Assembly: GCA_010093995.1 (NCBI GenBank)
Contig: ML992506.1
Coordinates: 244,832-308,831 of the forward strand
DNA: 64,000 nucleotides
From: Elsinoe ampelina
Taxonomy: Eukaryota
Direction: 5' to 3'
Part shown: positions 23,911 through 31,792 of the stretch, piece after piece
Layout: each line of letters starts with the position of its first letter
Numbering within the stretch: position 1 is the stretch's first letter
Notes under the pieces: model-generated
The model's input: the letters and a program-made list of their open reading frames with translations, nothing else
Database searches by the model: none
Told to the model about the DNA's origin: nothing
Made by a program: the position numbers and the translations under genes

Positions 23911-26004
23911 TCATGTGCTCGAAGCGAGAAACCCATCGAGCTTGCATGACCGCCCAAGGAAAGCTGTGACAAGCTGCGTCTCGTCCGAGCTGCCACCCTT
24001 CTCGAGGACCAAGTGCCTGTAGCGGCGGCCAGTCGTGCTACAGATTGGATCGTCTTTGAACATTGTGTCGAACATATCCTGAGCAATAGCTTTCGACCAC
24101 AAATAGCTGTACATGCAGCCGTCGTTTCCATTCATCAGGTGGCGAAATGTTCCATATCCGAATCTATGCCCAGTCAGCGAGCGGATGGACCATCATCAGG
24201 TCCGGCTTACTCCTCATCAACGTCCTCGATCCCCTCGATTTGCAAGCATGACTTGTACACATTACCCAGGTCTGGACCGACTTCTCCTGTACTGGAATGT
24301 ACCGCATTGTCGAAAAGAGTGATCCGTAGCTGAGGCAGCAGACTCACCATGGGTGCCATGTGTCTGGACTGCGCGAGCGCTTCGATCACAGCGTCCGGCA
24401 TGATTTCTTTCGTGATGTAGTGCGAAGAGAGCTGCTGCAACCCCACCGGATTCCAACACCACTCCTCCAGCATCTGAGACGGCGCTTCGTTGAAGTCGGC
24501 TGCAGTCTCTGCTCCATGATAGCGGGAATACTTGCATTTGCCTACCAGGTCATGAATGCCATGACCTAGTTCGTGGAAGACGAGCACCACCTCGGAGTGC
24601 TGCAGAAGACGATGTCCATCTGCAGCTAGTGGCTCGAAGCTCGTGATGAGAACAGTCGATGGGTAATGCCGAGATCCATCTGGCTTGACATACCCTGCTT
24701 GCAGCGGATGACAGTGGGGCATGCCAGATTTGCCGGAGCGTGAGTAGAGATCCAGATACAGGTAGCCCACAAAGTCACCGCCTTCTTCGGGGGTGTTCCA
24801 CACGCTATAGACGGTGACGTCTTCGTGCCAGACCAGCCGTGCAGCTACTGTGGCGTCGATCTGCTTAAAGGCAAGACCGAAGAGGTGACCAAACAGTTTC
24901 AGCATATTTGCTAGCGTCCTCACCAGAGGAAAGTACTCGGAGACCTCTGCTTCGTTCAAGTGCGTCCTTTCCGAGCGATATAGTCTGGTGTAATATGGCA
25001 GGTCCCAAAGAGCCATGTCGCTTGCTGAATCACCAATCATGTTAGATCTCAGCCGTCGAAGTTCAGCAAGTTCCGCCTGGATCTGCTCATCCACCCGATC
25101 CTTGACCTGATCGAGGAAGCTTTGGACCCGCTCCGTGCTTTTCGCCATCTTCGTCTGGAGGACGAGCTCAGAGTGAGTGCGATGGCCGAGCAGCCTTGCC
25201 TTTTGCTGCCTCAATCGTAAGACCTGCTCCATTATCGAGACATTGTTTTTGCCCTAACATAGATTAGTCCCGTCGCCATGAACTACCAGGCTCACCTACT
25301 CTAGCGACGTTCGCCCGGTACAACTTCTCCCTCGTCTCTGCTCGGACAGCAAATTTGAGAATTGCGGCGTAGTCTGGACCACCAAGCGGGACGCGATAAT
25401 GGCCGTTGTCTTCCTGCAATCGCTGTAGCATTACTTCGGGAACGCCTTCGATCTCCTCGGTGTCGAGATACAGGGCATGGTCGTCTGTGTCAAGGTTGCT
25501 TGCGAATTCCCGTTCCAGCTGTCTGATCTTCTGCTGCACGTCTGCAAGTTCCGCAGCGTCCGCATCATCCATCAGAATGCCGTTCTGCTGGAAGGCTCGT
25601 CTGGTGTCTGTCATGAGCTTGGTGTCTTCCTCGTCCAGCTGAGGCTCGCCGCCACTTTGCCAGCGAGCATATACTGCATCTACAAGTTTAGCCAAATCCT
25701 TGCGACTGTATCTTGCATTCTTAGAGGCGGCATGTTCGTCTATGGCTTTGTGGCACGCCTCCCTCAGGCTCGCATCTGTAGCAACTTTGGAGAGCAGCTC
25801 GATGAAATTGCTGGTTAGCTGTAGTTGATTGTCAAGGTCGGCCAGCTTGACTGCCACAGTACCAAATGTGGCATCATCCAATGGAGTCCGGCAGAGCGTG
25901 TCAATAGTCTCTTGCGATTCAACGAGCGCCGTTCTGCTTGTCGCTTCCACCTCGGCGACGTCAAGAACAAAGAGCACTGGAGACTGCGGGCACTGTCCTT
26001 TCAT
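23911..26004 (-). CDS. M3A family metallo-oligopeptidase (thimet oligopeptidase/Prd1-like), 3 exons
   Basis: VFHELGHGIH (HExxH), DFNEAPSQMLEEW, LYLDLYSRSGK, YSYLWS, GRRYRHLVLEKGGS. Introns at about 25254-25299 and 24164-24210. No signal peptide. Confidence 0.93.
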
Positions 26005-26441
26005 GACCGTGATGCGTGATAGCAAGAACGCAAAGCCGCTCAAGGGCTGACGTTGATGACCTTATCTCTTTGCACCACACGTGATATCATTGTGTCTTCA
26101 GCTGGTTACAGTACTGTACCATGCAAAGTAAGCATGACCTGCCTTTTCCGGCGCAGACTGTGCCTCAATCAATCAGCCCAACAATGACCCATTGCTGGCA
26201 TGTAGAGAATACTCCTGTTCGACTTCGCACGGCTCCTTCAGTGACCAATTATGGTCCCACATGCATGACATATATTCATTGTAACGACAGTGATGTAGGT
26301 CGACAGATGCCAAAACTCCCTGGAGACCAAACCCGAAGCTCGAGGTCCCGTGGGCCCCCGAGGCTGGCCCCCTAATTTCACGGCTGGGCCCCATTCTGCC
26401 GAGGAAATCTGGCAACAATCCCTGCCCTGCCCTGTGCTTCA

Positions 26442-26879
26442 CTACTGGCGGTAGAATGTCCCGCCCCTCGTCATCGCTTCGACAGCATCACTTTCCTCCC
26501 TCTTCTCCTTGTAAAAAGTTCCACCTCGAGTCATCGCCTCCAAATCGTCACGCTTCTCTTTGTAAAAGGTGCCTCCCCTGGTCATGGCTTCAAGAGCGGA
26601 GTCCTCACCGCGCTTCTCCTTGTAAAACGTCCCTCCTCTTGTCATGGCCTCGAGGAGTGCATCCTCGTCACGCTTCTCCTTGTAGAATGTTCCTCCTCTG
26701 GTCATGAGTTCAACAACTGCATTCTCGCCACGCTTGTCCTTGTAGAAGGTGCCGCCGCGAGTCATTGCTTCGAGGTCGTCTCTCTTGGAATGGTACTTGG
26801 AAATATCCTTGCTGTAATCCATCGGCGCCGCGAGCGCCACACCGGCAGTGACGAGGAGGAAGATGTCGTTGAGACGCAT
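26442..26879 (-). CDS. Kex2-processed repeat protein: candidate dikaritin RiPP precursor with 6x MTRGGTFY
   Basis: Signal peptide MRLNDIFLLVTAGVALA, then six units of acidic spacer-E[AL]-MTRGGTFY-K[DE]KR (the last ends RQ*). Adjacent to DUF3328 genes. Confidence 0.93.
   Translation of the reverse strand: MRLNDIFLLVTAGVALAAPMDYSKDISKYHSKRDDLEAMTRGGTFYKDKRGENAVVELMTRGGTFYKEKRDEDALLEAMTRGGTFYKEKRGEDSALEAMTRGGTFYKEKRDDLEAMTRGGTFYKEKREESDAVEAMTRGGTFYRQ
26451..26765 (-). repeat. Six coding repeats (60/51-nt period) of the precursor core
   Basis: Core codons at 26742-26765, 26682-26705, 26622-26645, 26562-26585, 26511-26534 and 26451-26474. Confidence 0.95.
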
Positions 26880-27380
26880 ATTGATCGAATCTAGGTGTAA
26901 AAGCGGGGCTCAAGCTGATGGCTGTCCAGTCCAAGTCAAGAGCTGTTAAGCTCCTTATACAACAACAGAGGAGCTCTTCAGACCGGTCCAACTCTTTCTC
27001 CCACCGTCATTGTCAAGTCAGCTTGACTGCATCTCGTGTGGGGCAGCAGTGTAATGGCTTACATGATGTGATAATTATCATGTACTACCACTGCTCCGAT
27101 TCGTGAGCCATGTGCTAATAGATAGAGGCTAGTGCGAGGAAGCGCTGATCTCATAAAGTAAGTATTATCTCAATCACCTTGTCAATCACCCGGCCCATTG
27201 TCACAATTTCGGCGAGAGTCTCGGCCACTTTACACTGTGCTACTAGTGGCGCTTAGTCGTCTCACACAAGAGTCGATTCGATAGCAGATCAATATGTCGC
27301 ACAAAACTGCCTCATGAGCAGTGCGAGAAGCCAAACAGATATTGCACACGTTCGATCCTCATGATGTAGCAATCCATTCT

Positions 27381-30109: not shown

Positions 30110-30818
30110 AATGGACGCAGAGTCAGAGCACACGCCTTTCATGTCCGAGTACAACGGCGGAATCCTAAGGAAAATGAAGCAAGCCCATGGGCCTCATTCA
30201 ACAAGACTTCAAGACCGGCTATTACAACTTCTCTCCAAACCCCTGACAGTCACGACCCTCACCTCGTTACTATGGGTATCTCTCTTCTTCATCCTCTTCA
30301 CACACCCCAGACCAGACATCTCCCCCCTACAACGCGGCGAAGAACACCCGATCAAATCCCACTCAACCTTCACCAACTGCGGCAGATCAGTCCCCGAAGC
30401 GCAGAAACTCGGCTGCACTTATGACATCCTCAGCAACCACTGGGTGCCCGACAAGTGCATGGACGAGCAAGCCGTGAAATGGTACCAAGCCGACGGATCC
30501 TGGCAGGGTTTCGCGGACGAGAACCGGACAGAGGTGGTTGATGTAGCTGCCATGGGGACCACGGGGCTCTATTATACCAGTATGAGGGACCATATCGTGC
30601 ACTGTGCGATTTTGTGGAAGAAGCAATTCGCTGCGTTTTACCGCGAGAGAGGGTATTATGATTCGTTGATTGTGGATCCGGAGCATACTGATCATTGTGT
30701 TGATTTCTTGATTGATATGACGGATCATGGGGTTGATTTTCGGAAGATACCGATCAAAGTCGAGGTCGGGTTTGCAGGGTGTTGGGTGCAGAATCGGTAT
30801 ATAGAAAAGAGCGTGTGA
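30110..30818 (+). CDS. DUF3328/UstYa-like oxidase 3
   Basis: Likely start MDAESEHTPF, TM anchor, CGRSVPEAQKLGCTYDILSNHWVPDKC, HIVHC and HTDHC motifs. Confidence 0.88.
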
Positions 30819-30859
30819 GCGTGATCGGAATGCTGTGGGGAGATGTACGTAATGCGATC

Positions 30860-31792
30860 TTATGCATTGATGTCAGCGCCGTGCGACAATATTATCGACA
30901 CCATCTTCTCCGATCCGACTTGTACGGCGACATGTAGAGCAGAATGGCCCCTGTTGTCCTTCCAATGGATATCTGCTGCTGCTTTGAGCAGGAGCGTGAC
31001 AGCCGTCTGATGACTTTGCTTGACCGCCGCAAACAATGGTGTTCTCCCTGACCAGTCTGCAATATTTGGGTCTGCTGAATGCTCCAGCAGAGTTGTGATA
31101 GCTTCGTTGTTGCCGTTTTGAGCGGCCACATGCAATGGTGTAGTGCCGTGGCTGTCTCGCTTGTTGACGTCGGCCCCGTGGGCAAGCAGAAGTCTCATCA
31201 TTGCGTCAGAAGACTCCTGTACTGAAAGATGGAGGACGGTTTGGCCCGTGGCCGGTAAGGTCACCGGGGCACTCTGTGGAGGCAGAGATGAAGTTGACGG
31301 CAGATCTCCATGGCCAAGTAAAGGACTGAAGGTCCAAGCGGCCTCCTCAAGTACGGGAGTGGTTTGCGGACTGAAGAAGCCTGCTGTGGTTGCTGCGCTA
31401 CTGTTCGAGGATTGCGGTGATCCATTCGTGTAGTCTTGAACTGGCCCAATGGCGGATACTCGCGCTGTTGCGGAAGCCGTGGCCGGTGGAAACATTGCAG
31501 GTGCGGAATTGGACAAATTCGTATTATCGACAGGTAATGGAGGGACGTCCTGGCCTGCTTCATTGACACATACGGCAGCTTGTAACGCTAGCATGCGTTG
31601 CTTTTGATTGTGCCCTGAACAAATCGATCAATACAGAGCTTCGCGAGAAGTTTGACAGCAATTCGACATACGATATGTTCGTTGTGCCATGCGATTCTGC
31701 CGTCTCTTCTTTTCCTTCCTCTCTTCGAGCTCCGCCAAGACCAGTCTCAATGCAGCTTGCGAGGAGTCCGCCTCTGGTAAAGATGAAGCCAT
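30860..31792 (-). CDS. bZIP basic region + ankyrin repeat (bANK) transcription factor, 2 exons
   Basis: Exon 1 (31792-31672) MASSLPE...ERKEKKRRQNRMAQRTYR splices via intron 31615-31671 (GTATGT...CAG) in frame to HNQKQRMLALQ... with four ankyrin repeats (GQTVLH, GTTPLH, GRTPLF, GHSALH). Confidence 0.88.

Follow-up and report, generated by a model that had tools for sequence, protein, structure and literature searches.

Few fungal ribosomal peptides are of known structure, yet precursors of the Kex2-repeat type encoded beside DUF3328 genes run to thousands; the survey of Umemura 2020 arrived at 1758 such Kex2 repeat proteins (PMC7329392). For the ustiloxin and phomopsin pathways, the same source describes cyclisation by an ether link to the ring of tyrosine (PMC7329392). 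That DUF3328 proteins are copper enzymes was not shown until 2025. In the cyclochlorotine hydroxylase CctR, as described, a cytosolic tail and a single membrane helix precede a luminal domain with the motif HxxHC(x)nHxxHC on two helices. Two coppers are bound by this motif, and activity requires O2, electrons and dimerisation through a disulfide, while AprY of the asperipin-2a pathway is likewise reported to depend on copper and O2 (PMC12435403). On the regulatory side, the bANK factors ToxE, Aps2 and Apf2 are described as pathway-specific activators of cyclic-peptide clusters, with an N-terminal bZIP-like basic region without leucine zipper and four C-terminal ankyrin repeats (PMC4109984). 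The present analysis concerns six contiguous genes in a 64,000-nucleotide stretch of DNA from Elsinoe ampelina (GenBank assembly GCA_010093995.1, contig ML992506.1, positions 244,832 to 308,831), hereafter called the window, in which a repeat precursor, three twin-HxxHC proteins, a peptidase and a bANK-type regulator are encoded side by side.

These genes are best read, with a probability of about 0.68, as a working cluster for a peptide made on the ribosome and modified after translation (RiPP) that combines a Kex2-repeat precursor with copper oxidases in a dikaritin-like manner. The peptide-maturation reading is favoured because the linkage of the genes is conserved, the core of the precursor is under selection, related precursors lie beside related gene sets and spliced transcripts cover most of the genes. 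An earlier reading of the sequence (the original prediction) had proposed a RiPP pathway; these four lines of evidence uphold a peptide-maturation cluster, but only one of the three oxidase-like genes belongs to PF11807.

Six genes around a repeated core

With a GC content of ~52% and spliced introns in its genes, the window is fungal in character. All six genes named in the original prediction were found where it had placed them:

23911–26004, minus strand: M3A metallopeptidase gene (Pfam PF01432, RNA-supported introns)
26442–26879, minus strand: precursor peptide gene, 145 amino acids (open reading frame and repeat sequence)
27381–28067, minus strand: gene C, 228 amino acids, single exon (twin HxxHC; Pfam UstYa below cut-off)
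28499–29581, plus strand: gene D, UstYa/DUF3328, 277 amino acids, six exons (PF11807 and named protein P0061)
30111–30818, plus strand: gene E, 235 amino acids, likely start at M79 of the open reading frame (twin HxxHC; relatives without a Pfam domain)
30860–31792, minus strand: bANK-type regulator gene, 291 amino acids, one intron (Pfam Ank and basic region)

The precursor begins with a hydrophobic, signal-peptide-like N terminus (judged by eye), has KR at residues 32–33 and consists of six units of the form (spacer)-E-(A/L)-MTRGGTFY-(K/R). Five of the six are closed by K-(D/E)-K-R and the sixth by RQ-stop; repeated cores parted by Kex2 (KR) sites, as in dikaritin-type precursors, are therefore present. 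At the DNA level the gene is a tandem repeat of period 60 with 76% matches. The six 8-codon cores encode the same protein sequence, with tyrosine in every copy, and at the DNA level an average 5.1 of their 24 bases differ, without exception synonymously; the spacers between the cores vary. Identity at the protein level combined with purely synonymous differences indicates that the peptide sequence is under selection. The only database relative of the precursor, KVT40_009307 of Elsinoe batatas (83% identity), keeps the core as MTRGG(T/I)F(Y/N)K.

Gene D, a DUF3328/UstYa gene next to the precursor (1.6 kb away), is the Pfam member of the oxidase-like trio. Its exons (28499–28748, 28799–28960, 29009–29096, 29148–29178, 29228–29300 and 29352–29581, plus strand) join to give protein P0061 (Elsinoe ampelina BDZ85DRAFT_281327) letter for letter, and two of its introns are backed by RNA joints at 29096>29148 and 29299>29351. 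The product matches PF11807 at 1.7e-39 and 136.4 bits (cut-off 25) over profile positions 5–220 of 220, and carries the motifs H172-DL-H175-C176 and H200-IE-H203-C204 with a spacing of n = 23. A structural model of D built from a 4-sequence alignment reached a predicted local distance difference test score (pLDDT) of 38.2 and is unusable for fold comparison with E. A minus-strand intron seen in RNA contigs at 28765–28819, within the first exon and intron of D, may be an intron in the 5′ untranslated region of C or belong to antisense RNA of D.

The products of genes C and E are built alike. In C, an N-terminal tail and one hydrophobic helix at about residues 50–71 (by eye) precede a domain with Cys91, Cys103 and Cys117, the motifs H164-xx-H167-C168 and H194-xx-H197-C198 (n = 25) and the C-terminal Cys228. 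In E, a tail and a membrane helix are followed by a mixed alpha/beta domain with Cys90, Cys102 and Cys116, the motifs H161-xx-H164-C165 and H192-xx-H195-C196 (n = 26) and a conserved Cys224 near the C terminus. The motif residues occupy invariant columns in alignments of 40 sequences (C) and 35 sequences (E), and in both families the twin motif shows little or no variation at its four histidines and two cysteines. The AlphaFold2 model of E (mean pLDDT 84.8) has a helix at 33–64 and places the motifs on helices 158–177 and 190–203. The CctR-type motif HxxHC(x)nHxxHC near the C terminus is found in C, D and E, its position on two helices being taken from the E model. C and E therefore carry the DUF3328 hallmarks as set out for CctR, in their topology as well as in the twin motif borne by two helices.

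C and E belong to one large family without a Pfam domain, in which only the twin-HxxHC region appears to be common with UstYa. They are clearly homologous to each other (hhalign 98.6% over 135 columns), and the gene C family numbers 984 representatives by phmmer at E ≤ 0.001; no precomputed Pfam domain was found in any of 59 relatives of gene E. Scanned against UstYa, a set of 35 relatives of E included 15 with sub-threshold matches, a set of 40 relatives of C included 6, and among 60 relatives at greater distance there were 22. When 80 distant relatives were scanned at E ≤ 0.0005, 3 matched and only one of them reached 28.2 bits; one distant relative aligns to UstYa profile positions 48–174 (E 3e-4). 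In an atlas search with C the top ranks went to unnamed clusters; one in which 28% of the members are UstYa came no higher than rank 18 (score 0.86) and is no more than a lead. The E model had no match in the PDB by Foldseek at E ≤ 0.001, and its best hit among 48,161 chains by VIA-align (Z 3.5) concerned the membrane helix only. Prediction of a complex of E (33–235) with C (45–228) scored 0.02 against a mark of 0.34 and counts neither way. An E-family protein, P0029 (57% identity), is filed in NCBI as 'Candidatus Bathyarchaeota archaeon' on a 2.4-kb contig and most probably represents fungal DNA that contaminates an archaeal bin.

The M3 gene has three exons (25299–26004, 24211–25252 and 23911–24163, minus strand), which a contig of RNA run X1 joins across 47- and 46-base CT..AC introns. 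Two of the exons match PF01432 at 2.3e-73 and 3e-13, and the spliced frame is open over 666 amino acids with HExxH at residue 462, in keeping with peptidase family M3, subfamily M3A; among solved structures, thimet oligopeptidase (2.3e-57) and neurolysin are the closest to it. In the regulator gene, exon 1 (31672–31792) encodes the basic region RKEKKRRQNRMAQRTYR and is separated by an intron (31615–31671) from exon 2 (30860–31614), which encodes four C-terminal ankyrin repeats (Pfam Ank, 1.8e-31, four matched stretches); the splice sites were taken from the sequence itself and leave the frame open. Pfam bZIP gave no match on exon 1 at E ≤ 0.01. The basic region was recognised by eye, as was the absence of a leucine zipper, and it has a counterpart, ERKRLQNRIAQRTYR, in the homologues on metagenome contigs L005 and L012. 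The Api-box (TGACGTGA) occurs nowhere in the window, and the Tox-box pattern occurs four times in the window and not once in five cluster promoter regions. The HExxH M3 peptidase and the bANK-type regulator of the original prediction are thus both present, and so are the membrane anchor (hydrophobic helix by eye) and the two HxxHC motifs it had assigned to each of C, D and E.

Linkage, related precursors and transcription

Linkage of these genes recurs in other fungi. In Sphaceloma murrayae, the consecutive accessions PNS14043.1 to PNS14046.1 are a Kex2-repeat precursor followed by orthologues of C, D and E, in the same order as in the window; the gene C orthologues are PNS14044.1 in this species and KVT40_009275 in E. 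batatas. Genes E and D lie on one 6.9-kb contig in Corynascus novoguineensis, three accession numbers apart in C. sepedonium and at consecutive accessions in Coniochaeta sp. 2T2.1. Metagenome contigs scanned with the E alignment yielded 40 loci, which fall into 22 groups at 97% DNA identity, and 8 of the 22 have C, D, bANK or M3 in the examined flank:

L002/4 and L011/34–36 (2 of 22 groups): C, D and bANK beside E
L006–8 (1 of 22): C and two D-like genes beside E
L005 (1 of 22): bANK and M3 beside E
L003 and L012 (2 of 22): bANK beside E
L001 (1 of 22): D beside E
L013 (1 of 22): C beside E
Partnerless groups with 8–10 kb of flank on at least one side: 6 of 22, E identity to the window 37–41%
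Partnerless groups with <4.2 kb of flank per side: 8 of 22

Conserved linkage, which the original prediction had proposed as a check, was thus found for C, D, E and bANK in several fungi. The gene arrangement goes beyond chance, because the identical cores differ by synonymous changes only and because the linkage recurs in other fungi.

Some of these loci also contain related precursors. The one in L007/L008 has at least five short exons coding for (E)PLPEPQA-GNRGGQGYSGKYI, one exon being a variant, and in L004/L002 two exons encode (E)PQA-GNRNAQSDYW and are joined in the same way. The KR codons in both pairs of loci arise from the exon–exon splice itself. Since KR is made by the splice junction, such a precursor would stay hidden from searches based on open reading frames or on unspliced repeats. 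In this arrangement each precursor repeat is its own short exon (L007:7280–7990 and L004:9300–9560, both minus strand). An annotated Lophiostoma protein, P0038, has a mis-fused N terminus reading EPQA-GNRNGQHYAY-RKR-EAEA-EPQAGN. The window core A-MTRGGTFY and those of L007/8, L004/2 and Lophiostoma have the pattern x-(N/T)-R-(G/N/D)-(G/A)-(Q/T)-x(1,2)-Y in common. In L013, a two-copy KR precursor with an unrelated core is present, and no repeat precursor was found in L005, L011/L034–36, L012, L001 and L003.

Transcription was followed through four sequencing runs, none of them registered as RNA, whose contigs skip introns with canonical ends and are therefore RNA-derived. Window-identical contigs of run X1 cover M3 (both introns removed), positions 26500–27081 over the precursor, D (two introns removed), E at 29995–30837, and 31877–32322 upstream of bANK; contig depth cannot rank the genes by expression. 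In runs X2–X4 the precursor, C, D and bANK were not covered by any contig, which is no evidence of silence. The RNA contig of the precursor region carries two canonical plus-strand introns, at 27082–27132 and 27158–27399. These are antisense to the 5′ region of the precursor gene and to the 3′ end of gene C.

The flanking genes encode methionine synthase, the complex I 20-kDa subunit, sedlin, a Ydc2 resolvase and a pyridine-nucleotide disulfide oxidoreductase. As these are housekeeping functions, the six genes form a compact island. The absence of tyrosinase, methyltransferase, flavin-containing monooxygenase and nearby transporter genes, also claimed in the original prediction, is confirmed by annotation of the cluster flanks: the nearest genes of the major facilitator superfamily are ~12 kb and ~20 kb off, amid housekeeping genes. 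The window contains no gene for a nonribosomal peptide synthetase (NRPS) or another scaffold.

Other features of the window were noted in passing. A secreted type-B carboxylesterase gene (21075–22828, minus strand), with a 47-base intron backed by RNA joints in runs X2–X4, lies directly upstream of the cluster, and nothing ties it to the cluster. A 957-amino-acid open frame (17881–20754, plus strand) has no Pfam match at E ≤ 1e-4. An AT-rich block at ~57000–62000 (GC 0.33–0.46 against ~0.52 elsewhere) is without long open reading frames and is possibly a degraded repeat region. At 33045–33335 (plus strand), a 96-amino-acid open reading frame has a signal-peptide-like start and two Cys-x-G-G/E-x-x-Cys-A-S-I-P-K units; as it sits within the RNA contig of a minus-strand SWIM/RING gene (32953–34284), it may not be a gene.

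Proposed pathway and its rivals

Kex2 processing, the copper chemistry of C and E, the order of the steps, the role of the M3 peptidase and the nature of the product are what we infer from the observations above. In this scheme, the bANK factor would switch the cluster genes on and the 145-amino-acid precursor would enter the secretory pathway at the endoplasmic reticulum. Housekeeping Kex2, encoded outside the cluster, would cut after each KR to give six peptides of 16–20 residues containing MTRGGTFY. The products of D, C and E, membrane-anchored with their domains in the lumen, would then use copper and O2 on conserved positions of the core; the modification would most likely be a tyrosine-centred cross-linking, by analogy with ustiloxin, phomopsin and asperipin-2a. 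The thimet-like M3 peptidase would trim the acidic spacer (e.g. DDLEA).

Several observations weigh against a modified-peptide cluster of this kind. No metabolite is known for it. The three oxidase-like genes had been announced as three DUF3328 oxidases; the PF11807 search bears this out for D (136.4 bits) but not for C (17.6 bits) and E (15.4 bits), both below the cut-off of 25. A D-type profile, made from four sequences only, gave hhalign values of 3% and 16% with the E and C families, confined to the twin-motif region, and the reverse search with hmmsearch gave at most 11.7 bits. KVT40_009275 (the C orthologue) and KVT40_009307 (the precursor) of E. batatas share a contig but are 32 locus tags apart, and one repeat of that precursor has N where the others have Y. 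The 14 of 22 E-homologue groups without a partner, six of which have 8–10 kb of flank, indicate that E-like genes occur alone too. The five promoter regions showed no motif in common, the sole 7-mer present in four of them occurring 15 times in the window. The plus-strand introns point to an antisense transcript, so that the RNA contig over the precursor is of unsettled strand. Two last points concern the peptidase: its N terminus is not signal-peptide-like, which by eye makes it cytosolic whereas the precursor is secretory, and no M3 gene is present in the examined stretches (11.6–20 kb per locus) of L004, L007 and L034–36, the three best-covered related clusters.

These last two points would also fit an alternative in which the M3 gene is a housekeeping saccharolysin-type enzyme that merely adjoins the cluster, general proteases doing the trimming, as would the RNA contigs of runs X2–X4, from another study, which fall on M3. 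This is less likely than not. A second M3 gene is found in the unrelated metagenome contig L005, ~1.5 kb from the bANK gene on the side away from E, and its identity to the window M3 is only 30–43%, a value that would be low for housekeeping M3 orthologues. Thimet-type oligopeptidases are limited to short peptides, a limit that the Kex2 products of 16–20 residues would suit. Moreover, X-Pro and X-Ala dipeptides follow KR in the precursors of L007, L004 and Lophiostoma; Ste13 trims the EA/EP spacers of alpha-factor in yeast. The spacers of the window precursor are without such dipeptides. Relatives that have them show no M3 in the examined DNA, and the window has neither dipeptide and an M3 gene, which suggests, in two cases against one and as a hypothesis only, that M3 would carry out the N-terminal trimming of the window peptide.

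It is improbable that a modified peptide is made with D as the sole catalyst, C and E being non-catalytic partners in copper or electron delivery, scaffolding or self-protection. That C and E are not Pfam UstYa members speaks for such a division of labour; an accessory protein giving electrons or Cu(I) in the lumen is postulated by the authors of the CctR study (PMC12435403), and the asperipin-2a pathway is reported to need one DUF3328 protein (PMC7329392). However, the near-invariance of the twin-motif histidines and cysteines in the C and E families argues for catalytic function, since the same residues are copper ligands essential for activity in CctR (PMC12435403), and the ustiloxin and phomopsin pathways are reported to use two and five DUF3328 proteins, respectively (PMC7329392).

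No more probable is the view that the precursor is an ordinary Kex2 repeat protein giving unmodified linear secreted peptides (signal, pheromone-like or host-directed) while the HxxHC genes act on some other target: 78% of 7878 Kex2 repeat proteins are reported without DUF3328 nearby, many yielding linear peptides such as mating factors (PMC7329392), DUF3328 enzymes are described as also modifying non-ribosomal peptides, e.g. cyclochlorotine, and no modified product is known, but the precursor adjoins C, D and E in both the window and S. murrayae, L004 and L007 likewise combine precursors of related core with related C, D and E genes, and there is no NRPS or other scaffold gene in the window.

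A modified-peptide cluster remains the preferred reading, and a wider one is advanced tentatively, as somewhat less than an even chance. The window would be one member of a widespread fungal ribosomal peptide family with the core x-(N/T)-R-G-G-(Q/T)-x-Y, three copper oxidases of the membrane as a constant set (the C and E types forming a large twin-HxxHC family outside Pfam UstYa), a bANK regulator of a type otherwise met in NRPS clusters and, in some lineages, a dedicated M3 peptidase replacing Ste13-type dipeptide trimming. If so, the peptide made would have a new cross-linked scaffold, and C and E would stand for a new branch of copper enzymes that modify peptides. Being small and transcribed, with an invariant core and relatives in several fungal classes, the cluster is a practical entry point, and it offers a way to ask whether the Pfam-less twin-HxxHC family (984 representatives with gene C) consists of active peptide oxidases. 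The host is apparently the grapevine anthracnose fungus, and the peptide may, speculatively, bear on plant interaction.

Comparison with known systems

The original prediction held that the gene set matches no recognised cluster. No paper on the window cluster, its core or the C/E family was found in the literature searched, which covered few subscription journals. However, the 2020 survey of Kex2 repeat proteins (Umemura 2020; PMC7329392) already includes PNS14043.1, the S. murrayae precursor, classed there as stand-alone and with DUF3328 in its vicinity; the supplementary tables of that paper give no sequences. The cluster is an uncharacterised variant of a common and numerous kind, that of Kex2-repeat precursors with DUF3328 genes.

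CctR is the point of reference for the enzymes. Their topology and the twin motif in C and E resemble it by sequence, and both proteins keep a conserved cysteine at or near the C terminus. CctR, by contrast, is described as acting on a non-ribosomal peptide and as having a helical C-terminal domain, and the E model is mixed alpha/beta. As regards the regulator, the window protein has the layout of ToxE, Aps2 and Apf2, a basic stretch with four ankyrin repeats. Those factors govern NRPS clusters (HC-toxin, apicidin), whereas the window bANK sits in a ribosomal-peptide cluster, and, unlike them, bANK genes occur in a ribosomal-peptide setting in five of the eight related locus groups as well. 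With this cluster, the reach of bANK regulators would go beyond non-ribosomal peptide pathways to ribosomal ones.

Among peptide clusters, that of asperipin-2a (Aspergillus flavus, AprA/AprY) is similar in being small, with a Kex2-repeat precursor, a tyrosine in the core and a DUF3328 oxidase as key enzyme, and in having neither tyrosinase nor methyltransferase as described (PMC12048977, PMC7329392). It is described with one DUF3328 protein, whereas the window has one UstYa and two twin-HxxHC proteins outside PF11807. The window cluster further differs by its bANK regulator, its M3 peptidase and its core, MTRGGTFY, the asperipin core being FYYTGY.

The ustiloxin and phomopsin precursors likewise start with a signal peptide, followed by KR-delimited copies with a tyrosine in the core, and several DUF3328 proteins (two and five) accompany them (PMC7329392). 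Their clusters are described as adding tyrosinase, methyltransferase, further oxidases and a transporter, which the window cluster is without. The ustiloxin and phomopsin cores, YAIG and YVIPID, have tyrosine first; in the window core, unlike these, tyrosine is the last conserved residue.

Yeast alpha-factor-type Kex2 repeat proteins have the same precursor architecture as that of the window. In L007, L004 and Lophiostoma the likeness extends to the X-Pro and X-Ala dipeptides after KR, which recall the Ste13 spacers. However, mating-factor Kex2 repeat proteins are reported to lie almost never near DUF3328 genes (PMC7329392), whereas the window precursor has three genes of this type, in the wider twin-HxxHC sense, alongside it.

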